DNA of 64,000 nucleotides from an uncultured Candidatus Saccharibacteria bacterium (GTDB taxonomy: Bacteria > Patescibacteriota > Doudnabacteria > UBA920), in the NCBI GenBank assembly GCA_964434195.1, contig CAYSUI010000005.1, positions 10,671 to 74,670 of the forward strand, read 5' to 3'. The position numbers and the translations under genes were made by a program. The notes under the pieces are model-generated. The model was not told where the DNA came from, made no database searches, and was given only the letters and a program-made list of their open reading frames with translations. Shown here one piece after another: positions 9,056 to 14,969 of this stretch (position 1 is its first letter; each line of letters begins with the position of its first letter).

Positions 9056-9559
9056 TTAAAACACAGTCTCTCCGTTTGATAGACGGTAAATTGCAATTGA
9101 AATATTCCAAATAAAATGAGCGGAAGTCGTTACCAAAAAAGCTTTAACATAATTATTTCTAAACCCACCGCACTTCAAAAATAAAAACGATAAGCATATC
9201 CCGCCCATACCTTGAGCAAATAGGTTAACTATGTTGCCATGCAAAATCCCGAAAACAAAAGATAAACCAAATGCACAAGCTAGCACTTTCGAAGATAAAC
9301 CCCAAACCTCAATTGCCACTACTAAAGGTAAACGAAAAATAAACTCTTCAATTGCAGCAAAACAAAACAACAATACAGGAAAATATGGTTGAGTCATGTC
9401 TAAGGATGGCTCCCGCGGCGGTAGTTTAAAACTTAAATATGAGAGTAAATCAACTAATGAATATTCAAGGATAAAATCAATACCCAGGGTTACTAAAACA
9501 TAAATCACTACCTTATACCCAAGGACTTCATCATTCAACCAAGTTAAAACCTTTTTCAT
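9056..9559 (-). CDS. CPBP-family (CAAX protease / Abi) intramembrane metalloprotease
   Basis: Motifs EExxxR (IEEFIFR), FxxxH (FGILHG), HxxxN (HFIWN) in a polytopic membrane protein. Confidence 0.65.
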   Translation of the reverse strand: MKKVLTWLNDEVLGYKVVIYVLVTLGIDFILEYSLVDLLSYLSFKLPPREPSLDMTQPYFPVLLFCFAAIEEFIFRLPLVVAIEVWGLSSKVLACAFGLSFVFGILHGNIVNLFAQGMGGICLSFLFLKCGGFRNNYVKAFLVTTSAHFIWNISIAIYRLSNGETVF

Positions 9560-9656
9560 ACTTCCTCCAAAGTAATAAAATTTGAAATACTGGCTATTAT
9601 GATAAAAATATAAAAAAATGTCTAGAGCTATTCTCTAGACATTTTTATAAATTCAA

Positions 9657-10349
9657 TTAAGGTCTTGGCACAGATCCACCACCACTAGTATTTCCACCAC
9701 CTACCAGCGTACCCAGAAAATCACTATTAGTTAAAGTGCCAGTTACAACCGAGACTATTACGAAAGACATAATAACAACAATCAAACCAACTACGGCATA
9801 TGTTAAGGTTTTCTTACCCTTTGTAGCCGCTTCTTCATTCCCACGAGACATAATGAACTGGAAACCGCCGACTATAATCAGCACTACTGCGATCATACCA
9901 GAAAGCGTTAACAACACTCTTATTATAAGAGTTGCAAGTGCTCCAATGCTTGTACTTCTTGCTACACTTCCCGGCTGAAATCCACCATACTCAGGAACGC
10001 AAATTCCATTCCTCTCAGAAAACCCTTCACACAATCCACTTCCAGCCGTATTACCAGAATTTCCCGTATTCCCTGTATTCCCACCTGTCGGATTTGCACT
10101 AGCTGCCGCAGTCTTATGGCAAGAAAATTGCGCAGGATCAAAGTTATAACCATTAGGACACTTAATCGGTCCAGTTGGTAAAGAGTTTTCATCAACACAC
10201 TGACCTTGGTTCGGGTCAGGCACACCCCTATCACATGTTCCATCAACCCACTCAGCCTGCTGTGCAAAAACAGGTGCAGGAATAATCGCACTAAAGATTA
10301 TTCCTAAATACATTCCAACAAACAGACTATTTTTAAAAAACTTTCGCAT
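9657..10349 (-). CDS. Secreted Cys-rich protein with GN(T/S)-repeat linker and C-terminal two-helix pilin-like membrane domain (paralog 1 of 6)
   Basis: Signal peptide; C-terminal IVGGFQFIMSRGNEEAATKGKKTLTYAVVGLIVV motif shared with the five upstream paralogs. Confidence 0.6.
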   Translation of the reverse strand: MRKFFKNSLFVGMYLGIIFSAIIPAPVFAQQAEWVDGTCDRGVPDPNQGQCVDENSLPTGPIKCPNGYNFDPAQFSCHKTAAASANPTGGNTGNTGNSGNTAGSGLCEGFSERNGICVPEYGGFQPGSVARSTSIGALATLIIRVLLTLSGMIAVVLIIVGGFQFIMSRGNEEAATKGKKTLTYAVVGLIVVIMSFVIVSVVTGTLTNSDFLGTLVGGGNTSGGGSVPRP

Positions 10350-10369
10350 CTTTAAAATTTTATAAAGTA

Positions 10370-10756
10370 TTAAATCAGTGAATTATAACCCAAAATGGTG
10401 TTTACTATTACGTTTATAATTATGTAAGACAATATTATAAGTACTAAACCAATTATAGCATTTACCACCGTCTTCTTACCTTTGGTTGCGCTCTCTGCAT
10501 TACCCGCAGAAAGGATATATTGGAATCCACCAATTATTATAAACAACACGGATACCCCACCAGCTATATAAAGTAGTATCTGAATAATAAAATATATAAA
10601 ACCAGATATAGAGTTAAATGCTACGCTAGGAAATAAAATTCTAAGCCTAGATAAACCACTGTTAATTTCATTCTGAGCAGAAGCAACAAAAGGAACTAAC
10701 ATTCCTGCAGCAGTTGCCCCAAAAGTAACTAAATTTTTCTTACTAATACTTTTCAT
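10370..10756 (-). CDS. Minimal pilin-like protein (signal peptide plus conserved two-helix C-terminal domain), paralog 2
   Basis: IIGGFQYILSAGNAESATKGKKTVVNAIIGLVLIIL; 128 aa, VirB2/TrbC-like size and topology. Confidence 0.6.
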   Translation of the reverse strand: MKSISKKNLVTFGATAAGMLVPFVASAQNEINSGLSRLRILFPSVAFNSISGFIYFIIQILLYIAGGVSVLFIIIGGFQYILSAGNAESATKGKKTVVNAIIGLVLIILSYIIINVIVNTILGYNSLI

Positions 10757-12679: not shown

Positions 12680-12681
12680 TT

Positions 12682-13854
12682 TTATAATCCCTTATAACCT
12701 ATTAAGTTTTGCACTATTGCTACTATACTAAACGCAAGTAAAGATACAATAACTCCTGCTATTGCCCAAGTCATTGTAGCCTTTGCCTGAGTAAGAGCTT
12801 CGCTATTTCCTTGAGAAATCACCATTTTAAAACCCGCTACAACAATAAACAAAACCGCCCATGCTGCTATAAGCGCAATAAATGCTTTCATTATTACTAG
12901 CATCAACTGACCTAAATTACCCGATTCAAGTGGATTACATAGTTGGGCACCAGGATTACAACCTGAACTAGAGGTAGTAGAAGTCCCACCCGTACTAGGC
13001 CCTCCAGTATTCGGATTTCCTGTACTTGGGTTTCCCGTTGGACCACCCGTTGGACCACCAGTGGGTCCACCCGTGGGCCCACCGGTAGGACCGCCGCTAG
13101 TTGGACTTCCCGAACCAGAAGTTACCGTTGCCCCTCCAATCTGACCTCCGGTAATTGAACCTTTAGCCTGATAAACCCTAATTGCGTAATTTTGCGTAAT
13201 TGTAGGTGTAAATGTCGTATCCTCAACATAAAAATCATTCGGGTCAATAGCCAATCCCCGATTCGTTAACACCACTTTATTATTTGGATCCAGAACTTCA
13301 ACCACAACCGTGTCGCCATTTGGCCCAGTCTGGCATCCAGTAGCCTTCACGCGGATATAATATTTTTCTCCCTTTACAACCGATGTAGCTGGTTGCCTGC
13401 TTGAGTTGAAAACCGATATTTCAGCACGGCAATTACTTGAACTAACCCCAACATTCATTATGGGGCCACATACAAATGACCTATCGTCGTCATATTGATA
13501 CTTAGCGCAAATATTATAACTACCTGGATTGTTGAAAGTTATTTGAATTAAACCAATACCTGGTGATTTTTCAGAAGCATAACCCCCAACAAAATCGGTA
13601 TTATTACTTACTACCGAATTATCTTTTTTTACTTTATAACCAATATCTCGAATCGAACAATTACTGAAGTTAAAAGTATAATCATACTTCTGACCCGTAA
13701 CCGGCCCGCTACCACTATAAAAAAGTTTACCCCCCGATATGTTACATGTCGCAGCACTTGCTTGTTCTGTTAGCAAAGAAGCTACTCCCAAATAAAAGAC
13801 TGCAGTAAAAACAGAGAAAGTAAATATTTTAAATAGTAATGTAAGAAATTTCAT
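12682..13854 (-). CDS. Large secreted protein with (GGPT)n repeat linker and C-terminal pilin-like anchor, paralog 5
   Basis: Signal peptide; GGPTGGPTGGPTGGPTGGPTG repeat; VVAGFKMVISQGNSEALTQAKATMTWAIAGVIVSLL. Confidence 0.55.
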   Translation of the reverse strand: MKFLTLLFKIFTFSVFTAVFYLGVASLLTEQASAATCNISGGKLFYSGSGPVTGQKYDYTFNFSNCSIRDIGYKVKKDNSVVSNNTDFVGGYASEKSPGIGLIQITFNNPGSYNICAKYQYDDDRSFVCGPIMNVGVSSSNCRAEISVFNSSRQPATSVVKGEKYYIRVKATGCQTGPNGDTVVVEVLDPNNKVVLTNRGLAIDPNDFYVEDTTFTPTITQNYAIRVYQAKGSITGGQIGGATVTSGSGSPTSGGPTGGPTGGPTGGPTGGPTGNPSTGNPNTGGPSTGGTSTTSSSGCNPGAQLCNPLESGNLGQLMLVIMKAFIALIAAWAVLFIVVAGFKMVISQGNSEALTQAKATMTWAIAGVIVSLLAFSIVAIVQNLIGYKGL

Positions 13855-13859
13855 AAATA

Positions 13860-14969
13860 TTAATTATTGGTATTTGTAGTAGCGTTTCTTTGTAAAATAT
13901 AATCTACTGGGTTAGTTAAAATATTTTGACCACCAGATAATCCAAGTATGCCATTTACAATTGTATTTATTAACAAGAAAGCCATCATTGCTAAAACTAA
14001 TCCCAATACAGAATTAATCAAATGTTTCTTTGCAGCAGTTATCTTTTCGGCACTACCCTGAGCAAGCAACATTGAAAATGCTGATCGAATAATCTGAAAA
14101 GTTGCAAAGAATCCAGCCATCAAAATAAGATAATTTGTTACCCGAGTCATCAGAGTAAACAAATCTCTAACTGTACAGCTATCACTCGGTCTAGGCCCAG
14201 CCGGACCACTTCCAGTAACAGCAGAATCTCTACCGCACGGAACTAACCCCTTCTCTTTCTCCTGTGCAACCGAAATATTCCCAGTAGAATTATTGTTATT
14301 ACCTGGAGCATTACTGTCTATTGTCTGACCTGGAGGTGCAGAAGATTCACTTCTTACACTCACTGTCCTAGCATCGGACTGAGTAACGGTTGCACCATTA
14401 GTAAGCGCCAGATAACTTGCCAACTGCAAAGTTCCACCATTTTGAATCAACTGTTTTGTACCTGAATCTTTTAACCCACTTGTTTGCCAAGGTAATTTAA
14501 ATTCAAAATATCCTTTAGATGCAAAGTCTTTATTGTATGGGTCAGTAGTATAACTTTGTTCTGGTCCAATAGTTTCATAACTGCCATCACTAAAGACATT
14601 TCTAAACCTATGCTTAAAAGTCTGACCACAAGTAGCATCTACAGTATATTTTGAATACAAAATAAATCTTGTATCTTTATTGGCCAAAGAGCTTATTTGC
14701 GCTCCGTTCATATCGGTAACATAAAACTGCACAACCGCATTGCAAACAGAAGCAGCCTGAACATCATGACCGAAAAAAACCACAGAAAGTAGCACTAACA
14801 GCATCCCAACTGAGGCTTTCGCCTTTATCAATTTATTATTCCAAATTTTTATTTTTGAGTTCAAAAAAGACATCCAACTAATATTTTTTACTATTAATAC
14901 TATACCACATTTACTATCCTCTAACTTATAAAAAATGAACCTTCTAGAACTTTCGCCTAGACGGCTCAT
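13860..14969 (-). CDS. Large secreted protein with C-terminal pilin-like anchor, paralog 6 (probable true start at the internal Met near 14873)
   Basis: Internal signal-peptide-like MLLVLLSVVFFGHDVQAAS; C-terminal LAQGSAEKITAAKKHLINSVLGLVLAMMAFLL. Confidence 0.5.
   Translation of the reverse strand: MSRLGESSRRFIFYKLEDSKCGIVLIVKNISWMSFLNSKIKIWNNKLIKAKASVGMLLVLLSVVFFGHDVQAASVCNAVVQFYVTDMNGAQISSLANKDTRFILYSKYTVDATCGQTFKHRFRNVFSDGSYETIGPEQSYTTDPYNKDFASKGYFEFKLPWQTSGLKDSGTKQLIQNGGTLQLASYLALTNGATVTQSDARTVSVRSESSAPPGQTIDSNAPGNNNNSTGNISVAQEKEKGLVPCGRDSAVTGSGPAGPRPSDSCTVRDLFTLMTRVTNYLILMAGFFATFQIIRSAFSMLLAQGSAEKITAAKKHLINSVLGLVLAMMAFLLINTIVNGILGLSGGQNILTNPVDYILQRNATTNTNN

Follow-up and report, generated by a model that had tools for sequence, protein, structure and literature searches.

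Six consecutive minus-strand genes in a stretch of 64,000 nucleotides (in the following called the window; contig CAYSUI010000005.1 of assembly GCA_964434195.1, from an uncultured bacterium placed in the Doudnabacteria of the Patescibacteriota) encode secreted paralogs that have a two-helix membrane module of the VirB2-like pilins in common. They are named P6, P5, P4, P3, P2 and P1 in operon order (Table 1). VirB2-like pilin arrays of Patescibacteria are a known kind of gene cluster with a Pfam family of their own, PF18895 (T4SS_pilin; T4SS, type IV secretion system), and the array in the window is a further example. We favour, with a probability of roughly 0.6, the reading that it is the Doudnabacteria version of these arrays, in which the conserved P3 would form the shaft and the ectodomain-bearing members would be minor subunits. 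New here are the class-wide position and order of the genes, ectodomain fusions on either side of the module, near-orphan and partly Ig-like ectodomains, and a conserved promoter and leader of P3.

The module and its family

The first-pass annotation of this DNA, made from the letters of the sequence, had described six consecutive minus-strand paralogs with N-terminal signal peptides and with ectodomains that are Cys-rich, rich in Ser, Thr and Asn, or built on (GGPT)n and GN(T/S) repeats. Genes, signal peptides and ectodomain types are all present at 9657-14969. The signal peptides, called from hydropathy, n-region charge and AxA motifs, have in all six proteins a basic n-region followed by a hydrophobic h-region, with an AxA-type site (SAQ, EAQ, SAA, VQA).

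In the alignment of the six proteins the common block comprises about 75 residues, namely a hydrophobic helix, the motif GG(F/Y)(Q/W)(Y/F)I.S.GN.E.A..KGKK and a second hydrophobic helix. Outside this module the six proteins all differ, and their mutual identity is 17-48%. A module common to all six had been proposed and is confirmed, but its supposed C-terminal position does not hold for P4, where it lies centrally and is followed by a 140-aa extension made of an S/P-rich linker and a C-terminal domain of about 90 aa. P1 and P6 carry tails of about 25-30 aa after the module. The loop between the helices is short and net positive in each of the six (G(N/S)xE...KGKK), and the numbers of Cys residues in the ectodomains are even (4, 8, 8, 2, 0 and 6). 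Signal peptides, even Cys counts and positive loop together predict Sec export, with both ends of the protein outside and the loop inside.

All six proteins pass the gathering cut-off of PF18895 (26.6 bits) with 28.9-46.6 bits. The precomputed annotation of identical proteins lists the same family for five of the six, the 390-aa member being without a recorded match. In single scans of 45 sequences, namely P2, P3 and the P3 orthologs, PF18895 was matched in every case and PF04956 (TrbC/VirB2) in 17 cases at E ≤ 0.001 (best 2.5e-7), and one P3 ortholog carries the NCBI name 'TrbC/VirB2 family protein'. Within the window P4 is the best match to PF04956 (20.5 bits, E = 5.6e-4). As reference we took eight annotated VirB2/TrbC genes of MPF_T (Ti-type) plasmids, each flanked by virB1 and virB3. 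The comparison of the P3 alignment with these sequences by hhalign is weak, with the first transmembrane helix and the segment before it in register (50 columns, E = 2.2e-4, probability 45%). The AlphaFold2 model of P3, computed from 45 sequences, shows a helix for the signal peptide, then disorder and then a helical hairpin (57-89/94-131; pLDDT 70.8), while a model of P4 from a two-sequence alignment was unusable (pLDDT 37.7).

These profile matches bear out the earlier suggestion that the proteins are of the VirB2/TrbC type and not type IV pilins, and we regard this assignment as correct at the level of the family, short of strict membership in PF04956. Type IV pilins and pseudopilins of type II secretion systems were rejected, as a class III signal peptide (G/F-xxxE) is absent from the first 60 residues of all six proteins and the hydrophobic pair is C-terminal or central. 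Sortase-assembled pilins were rejected as well, no LPxTG-like anchor motif being found in any of the six.

The TrbC/VirB2 proteins of diderm T4SSs (A. tumefaciens VirB2, RP4 TrbC) resemble the window proteins in their long signal peptide, two helices and short loop, in the size of the minimal members and in the weak in-register profile similarity. They differ in gene context, since the array has no adjacent virB1, virB3 or virB4, whereas virB1 and virB3 lie alongside all eight plasmid genes. The monoderm host, the several paralogs, the ectodomain fusions and scores below the PF04956 cut-off are further differences. A VirB2-like module in wall-less or monoderm bacteria is also known from the Mbov_0395 family of mycoplasma integrative and conjugative elements (NF045849, an NCBIfam model of pilin-like conjugal transfer proteins). 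However, all six window proteins stay below the threshold of this model (15.8-34.5 bits against a cut-off of 40), and such an element is not the context of the array.

Conserved core, variable ectodomains and order of the array

Of the six, P3 is conserved best and is the candidate for the major subunit. Compared with the sister genome (L006/L011), amino acid identity is 97.8% for P3, 97.7% for P2 and 95.2% for P1, and drops to 89.8% for P6, 85.8% for P5 and 84.8% for P4, the flanking proteins showing 96-99%. Among 783 homologs of P3 the best 120 are 57-98% identical to it. The dN/dS values against the sister genome (Nei-Gojobori) are 0-0.05 for the modules, with dN = 0 for that of P3, and 0.08-0.12 for the ectodomains. 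Four of the five identified flanking genes have values of 0.01-0.03; ComM has 0.10 and an unannotated 333-aa neighbour 0.16. The ectodomains are therefore less constrained, yet by these ratios they are under purifying rather than gene-wide diversifying selection. The only length difference of P5 between the two genomes is an indel of 10 aa in the (GGPT)n linker, which is thus polymorphic in length.

Beyond the sister genome only the modules can be aligned. When five window ectodomains were searched with phmmer against all open reading frames (ORFs) of the other loci (more than 60), the sister-genome orthologs and one marginal match (E = 0.008) were recovered. The homologs of P4 among 5.8 billion clusters are P4 itself and one ortholog with 85% identity. 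An exhaustive HMMER search with the P5 ectodomain against 1.84 billion representatives yielded seven proteins, the ortholog and six large proteins, five of which are multi-repeat surface proteins with PKD or bacterial Ig-like (Big) domains. These remote matches suggest that the P5 ectodomain is PKD/Ig-like, that is, an Ig-like β-sandwich. A conserved short member next to variable long members, as the first-pass annotation had pictured the system, fits both the identities of P3 and P2 versus P4-P6 and the species-specific ectodomains.

A scan of species-representative genomes with the P3 alignment gave 63 loci. A module HMM, trained on the window paralogs and the P3 orthologs, was then run on all ORFs of the related loci, and 68 related loci entered the comparison of neighbours. 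The P3 relatives come mostly from metagenome-assembled genomes labelled Candidatus Doudnabacteria, and several public metagenome assemblies contain DNA identical to the window. Five to eight module genes stand in tandem on one strand in nearly every Doudnabacteria-like locus. The gene order ComM–GalU–SBP–array–(tRNA-Leu)–FtsH–RNase III–SMC is conserved, and the solute-binding protein (SBP) and FtsH flank the array in 46 of the 68 loci, most exceptions being contig ends. If only the modules are compared, P6-type genes occupy the first position of the array, P5-type genes the second and P3-type genes the fourth, each with a clear margin in score; the positions of P4, P2 and P1 are less distinct. 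The fixed positions indicate that the paralogs predate the radiation of the class and that the family was not recently amplified. Judged by gene order, the class (about 46 Doudnabacteria-like species) has kept the array as an ancient, ordered set of genes at a single chromosomal site. The earlier description of a 'diversifying' system finds no support in view of this ancient, position-specific order and of the ectodomain dN/dS values.

The length of the ORFs varies by position and species. Among 301 module ORFs, 94 have at least 200 aa, 69 have at least 150 aa before the module and 21 have at least 100 aa after it. In the third position the module often lies near the N-terminus and is followed by a long C-terminal domain, and the last position is typically occupied by a member of 150-410 aa. 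Most pilins of the Saccharimonadales-type loci are short. In L069, the sole Saccharimonadales-type locus tested, the array adjoins a protein of about 930 aa with a weak TrbL/VirB6 match.

Three array-bearing genomes contain a solitary P3-like gene at a second locus (L060 9995-10393, L065 6865-7266, L066 8855-9217). The ORFs beside these three genes encode GyrA, S1, a P-type ATPase, Nramp, G6PD and unannotated proteins, and no T4SS parts were found among them. Genes of PF05635 ('23S rRNA intervening sequence protein', a four-helix bundle; the Avd family of diversity-generating retroelements) lie in or beside the pilin array of two loci (L008 8988-9362, L009 7037-7393), and a further one is present in the window at 62829-63209 on the plus strand. 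Diversification by a diversity-generating retroelement was considered and rejected: no reverse transcriptase gene was called in L008 and L009, and PF05635 genes are scattered through these genomes.

Arrays of this kind have been surveyed before. With PF18895 and PF04956 as profiles, Quiñonero-Coronel et al. (2025) reported VirB2-like pilins in 1,948 VirB4-positive assemblies, near virB4 in 1,135 of them, and 441 arrays of 2-11 pilin genes in 383 Patescibacteria assemblies with a mean identity of 25% (PMC12102498). An array was defined there as pilin genes in tandem or one non-pilin gene apart. The six tandem genes of the window with their 17-48% identity fall under this definition, as do the five to eight genes of the related loci. 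In Southlakia epibionticum a pilin series within the T4SS cluster is essential (PMC10633639, PMC12857230); a 2025 review speaks of the first possible pilus of a monoderm T4SS (PMC12857230), and for TM7x an 'array of small signal-peptide proteins' was described (bioRxiv 10.1101/258137). Table S1 of the survey lists at least one genome of the Doudnabacteria class as VirB4-positive (PMC12102498). A literature search on Doudnabacteria and type IV secretion gave no result.

The window array agrees with the published ones in the PF18895 match of every member, in about six divergent tandem paralogs with signal peptides and low identity, and in its monoderm, ultra-small and host-dependent lineage. Unlike them, it lies in a housekeeping context (SBP-array-tRNA-Leu-FtsH) away from T4SS genes. 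The descriptions known to us are of small pilins, whereas four of the six members here bear ectodomains of 100-300 aa, P4 on both sides of the module; Doudnabacteria are not discussed in these papers, and a separately promoted, structured leader is a feature of the array described here.

Promoters, starts and the leader of P3

The −10 hexamer TATAAT found directly behind the P4 stop codon aligns across species. A perfect TATAAT within 150 nt upstream is present for P3-type genes in 40 of 53 loci, compared with 48 of 225 other array genes (Fisher p = 2e-13), and the extended form TGnTATAAT for 21 of 53 P3-type genes versus 22 of 225 other ones. Twelve aligned leaders share the order T-R-T-G-n-TATAAT, about 20 nt, a hairpin, and the invariant extended Shine-Dalgarno sequence GAGAGGGGGTG.

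The hairpin of the window begins about 38 nt downstream of TATAAT and ends 9 nt upstream of the Shine-Dalgarno sequence. Its folding energy is about -40 kcal/mol (z = -7.7), none of 200 shuffled sequences is equally stable, and it occurs only once in the window. Rfam contains no family for it, the search of the array region giving only sub-threshold matches to plant miRNA precursors. In comparison with L006, three compensatory double substitutions keep the stem intact (GAGAG/CTCTC to AAAAA/TTTTT), while the flanking region of the ribosome-binding site is identical. The evidence for covariation comes from this one pair of sequences, because RNAalifold on twelve aligned P3 leaders gave only five trivial pairs; MAFFT failed to align arms that differ in length and sequence. 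In 14 of 53 loci the P3-type gene is closely preceded by a hairpin within the lowest 1% of local folding energy, where about one to two would roughly be expected by chance, and the sequences of these recurring hairpins are mostly unrelated.

A long perfect hairpin between the long and the short members had been noted before and is real, although it extends over 11308-11362 and not 11300-11350. It does mark the boundary and is under selection; its presumed role as a separator is not supported. As a transcription terminator or attenuator the hairpin would reduce the read-through of the long genes into the short ones, and the long, GC-containing perfect stem at this boundary would suit such a role. 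We consider this improbable. There is no U-tract after the stem, the terminator scan leaves the hairpin uncalled, and the conserved promoter element lies upstream of it; moreover, an attenuator at this place would lower the most conserved and presumably most abundant subunit. As it lies downstream of the conserved −10 hexamer, abuts the P3 ribosome-binding site and has no U-tract, the hairpin is best read as a structure in the 5' leader of a P3-P2-P1 transcript with a promoter of its own. Stabilisers of mRNA that combine a 5' stem-loop with a strong Shine-Dalgarno sequence occur in Gram-positive bacteria, and by analogy we infer that the hairpin would raise the expression of the short pilins through stabilisation of their mRNA. 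A processing site for RNase III or an element of translational control are the alternatives.

About 70 nt upstream of the P3-type gene of many relatives (L009, L014, L041, L053, L056 and others), the leader hairpin pairs a pyrimidine-rich 5' arm (CCCUCUCCC) with a purine-rich 3' arm. In single-sequence folds of these leaders the outer CCCUC pairs with GAGGG of the Shine-Dalgarno region, which would mask the ribosome-binding site.

Two of the gene starts probably differ from those of the ORFs. For P3 the probable start is TTG at 11280 (134 aa), since the extended Shine-Dalgarno sequence includes the GTG at 11292. P6 probably starts at M33 (14873), giving 337 aa, because the 90%-identical ortholog shows no conservation of residues 1-32 and the upstream ATG is overlapped by a promoter-like site (14968-14996). 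This site is the candidate promoter for the long-member part of the array.

Possible function and surroundings of the array

Under the favoured reading, the proteins would reside in the membrane after cleavage of the signal peptide, with both ends outside and the KGKK loop inside, and a VirB4-type T4SS encoded elsewhere would extract and polymerise them. P3, perhaps together with P2, would make up the bulk of a pilus-like filament or envelope conduit, and the ectodomain-bearing members would be subunits of lower abundance whose domains, exposed along its surface or at its tip, bind the host or a substrate. Compared with the long members, P3 and P2 would be expressed more strongly owing to the separate promoter and the 5' stem-loop. 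More tentatively, and with clearly less confidence, one may think of a VirB2-like filament or a T4SS-independent fibre with adhesin-like Ig/PKD domains fused directly to either end of the module. It would be built from a fixed set of five or six ancient paralogs, in which P3 and P2 form the conserved shaft, the other members are species-specific host-recognition subunits, and promoter and leader set the ratio.

An abundant conserved shaft with scarce adhesin-bearing subunits is found in VirB2/VirB5, in PapA/PapG and in major and minor type IV pilins. The likeness is one of functional analogy only, the trait proposed to be common being a polymerisation module that occurs in shaft and adhesin subunits alike. 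Folds and assembly machines of these systems are unrelated, the window array contains no VirB5 homolog, and its adhesin domains would, unlike theirs, be fused directly to the VirB2-type module.

Several points weigh against the favoured reading. The Pfam scan, which took in all window ORFs of at least 300 aa, detected no genes for VirB4, VirB6, VirB3 or a coupling protein in the 64-kb window, and in about 50 related species the same genes are absent within ±10 kb of the array. The scores of all six window proteins lie below the cut-off of PF04956 (27.9 bits). Fold searches with the P3 hairpin match thousands of structures and do not discriminate, since a two-helix hairpin is a simple and generic fold, and a profile search of the PDB sequences with the P3 alignment returned no pilin and only a spurious match to a MATE transporter. 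The roles of the promoter and of the stabilising hairpin are deduced from sequence conservation. To our knowledge, no pilus of such type has been seen in any Patescibacterium, and we know of no characterised precedent for domains of 100-300 aa on a VirB2-type subunit.

The absence of VirB4 and VirD4 from the window had already been stated and is correct for the ORFs scanned, the only FtsK-family ATPase being a housekeeping FtsK with 4TM, alpha and gamma domains. The conclusion that this is not a canonical T4SS locus holds for the window. As a sign of independence from T4SS it carries little weight, since many pilin genes of Patescibacteria lie away from virB4 (PMC12102498).

The main rival explanation regards the proteins as T4SS-independent envelope proteins, with the module as a two-helix membrane anchor or oligomerisation domain of a heteromeric surface complex that forms no filament. 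The array is never beside T4SS genes in about 50 Doudnabacteria-like loci and has housekeeping genes and the SBP as neighbours instead; the fold is generic, and large domains on either side of the module (before it in 69 and after it in 21 of the 301 ORFs) suit an anchor. The kinship to TrbC/VirB2 at the sequence level speaks against it, as do the Saccharimonadales arrays, which lie beside the weak TrbL/VirB6-like protein of L069 and inside an essential T4SS cluster (PMC10633639). Furthermore, the most conserved member is the minimal P3 with almost no ectodomain, which is hard to explain if the module were a mere ectodomain anchor. We hold this explanation to be unlikely, if still the best of the competitors.

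Even less can be said for a pool of interchangeable major pilins, produced by recent duplication and diversifying selection and serving antigenic or host-range variation, as proposed for Bartonella Trw and Anaplasma VirB2. Those paralogs are likewise tandem copies of a pilin gene in host-dependent bacteria and are thought to broaden surface interactions. The low paralog identity, the complete turnover of ectodomains between species and the length-polymorphic repeat linker would agree with such a pool, and the idea has been raised for Patescibacteria (PMC12102498). However, the copies of Bartonella and Anaplasma are recent, similar and under diversifying selection or concerted evolution, while position-specific orthology across the class makes the duplications of the window array ancient, and dN/dS indicates purifying selection on ectodomains and modules. 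The very different architectures and the separate promoter of one member point to distinct roles. We rate this possibility as very doubtful.

The genes around the array were also part of the earlier description (Table 1). The assignment of the downstream neighbour to the CPBP family is right, since PF02517 is matched above its cut-off and all three catalytic motifs are intact (EEFIFR, FGILH, HFIWN), but its link to the array is lost. Compared with the sister genome, the gene is a clean insertion of about 600 bp (flanks 8972-9656) between tRNA-Leu and the terminator-like hairpin that closes the array, and no homolog was found in any of the 68 related loci. In L006 a different stem followed by a T-run occupies the place of this terminator. 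From its position behind the terminator, the clean insertion and the missing homologs we conclude that the CPBP gene is a strain-specific insertion and not part of the system; as a pilin-processing protease it was ruled out by its lack of conservation. One could also think of a locus for bacteriocin-like peptides with a CPBP protein as immunity protease (Abi-type), as CPBP proteins are often found with small, secreted, hydrophobic peptides and the one here has intact motifs. This is effectively refuted by the same lack of conservation and position behind the terminator, by Sec signal peptides instead of double-glycine leaders, by the absence of a bacteriocin ABC exporter and by a module that belongs to a pilin family.

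The solute-binding lipoprotein on the other side had been recognised correctly. In 46 of the 68 related loci its gene is the immediate upstream neighbour of the array. The scanned ORFs of the window include no gene for an ABC permease or ATPase, and the lipoprotein may be an orphan binding protein with a functional tie to the array.

Table 1. Features of the pilin array and its neighbours, in order of transcription (positions in the window)
Feature	Position	Strand	Description
Solute-binding lipoprotein gene	14999-16321	minus	SBP_bac_8/SBP_bac_1; lipobox VAAGC
Promoter-like site	14968-14996	minus	TTGACT-17-TAAAAT; consensus scan, 10/12 matches; just past the SBP stop codon
P6	13860-14969	minus	369-aa ORF; S/T/N-rich ectodomain of ~195 aa; module aa 270-341; PF18895 28.9 bits
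P5	12682-13854	minus	390 aa; signal peptide, Cys-containing ectodomain of ~210 aa, (GGPT)n linker, C-terminal module aa 313-385; PF18895 30.3 bits
12-nt tandem repeat	13034-13092		4.9 copies (TRF); encodes the GGPT linker of P5
P4	11411-12679	minus	422 aa; signal peptide, N-terminal ectodomain of ~170 aa, central module aa 209-282; PF18895 29.5 bits
−10 hexamer	11400-11405	minus	TATAAT
Leader hairpin	11308-11362	minus	23-bp perfect stem, 9-nt loop
Extended Shine-Dalgarno sequence of P3	11289-11299	minus	AAAGGCGGTGA; counterpart GAGAGGGGGTG in 12 aligned leaders
P3	10876-11292	minus	138-aa ORF; minimal pilin; PF18895 46.6 bits
P2	10370-10756	minus	128 aa; second minimal pilin; PF18895 40.6 bits
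P1	9657-10349	minus	230 aa; Cys-rich ectodomain of ~100 aa (6 Cys), GN(T/S) linker, module aa 133-205, G/S-rich tail; PF18895 36.2 bits
Intrinsic-terminator-like hairpin	9614-9646	minus	14-bp stem followed by a T-run (terminator scan); closes the array transcription unit
CPBP/Rce1-like gene	9056-9559	minus	PF02517 26.8 bits, cut-off 22.4

The other genes of the window are housekeeping genes (SMC, RNase III, FtsH, ComM, GalU-like, LspA, RecA, FtsK, IF-2, Ddl, S1, GyrA). A gap of 1.8 kb, AT-rich and poor in ORFs, lies upstream of a gene with a DEDDh exonuclease domain. Within 82 nt of it (22237-22318), about 7-12 kb from the array, are five DnaA-box-like 9-mers, one of them perfect (TTATCCACA). 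This site could be a DnaA-controlled region or an origin; the GC skew does not change its sign there. Non-coding tandem repeats in the ORF-poor gap (20974-21536; units of about 116-187 nt with 69-97% identity) are not CRISPR-like. Nearly all genes at 1.5-36 kb lie on the minus strand and nearly all at 37-64 kb on the plus strand, the switch falling at about 36000-40000, and near 40 kb the GC skew changes from about -0.25 to about 0, which may mark a replication-related boundary. A run of three ORFs (300, 443 and 477 aa) on the plus strand at 57564-61729 matches no Pfam family at E ≤ 0.001 and lies in a stretch of higher G+C content (0.45 versus 0.37); by eye, the 477-aa ORF resembles a glutamine amidotransferase/PRTase.

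For annotation, arrays of this kind should be labelled T4SS_pilin/VirB2-like, and the CPBP gene should be kept unlinked. The array bears on how Patescibacteria attach to their hosts and take up resources; a T4SS with its pilin series is essential in the one species tested. By the genome comparisons reported here, the pilin set of Doudnabacteria appears as an ancient, ordered and separately regulated module of one conserved minimal pilin and species-specific, partly Ig-like members. If a filament is formed, the ectodomains would be natural candidates for determinants of host specificity and P3 the natural target for localisation or depletion. Should the reading as a fibre with fused Ig/PKD domains be true, the fibre would have a pilus architecture that no described T4SS shows, and it would be a candidate determinant of the host specificity of an uncultured class.

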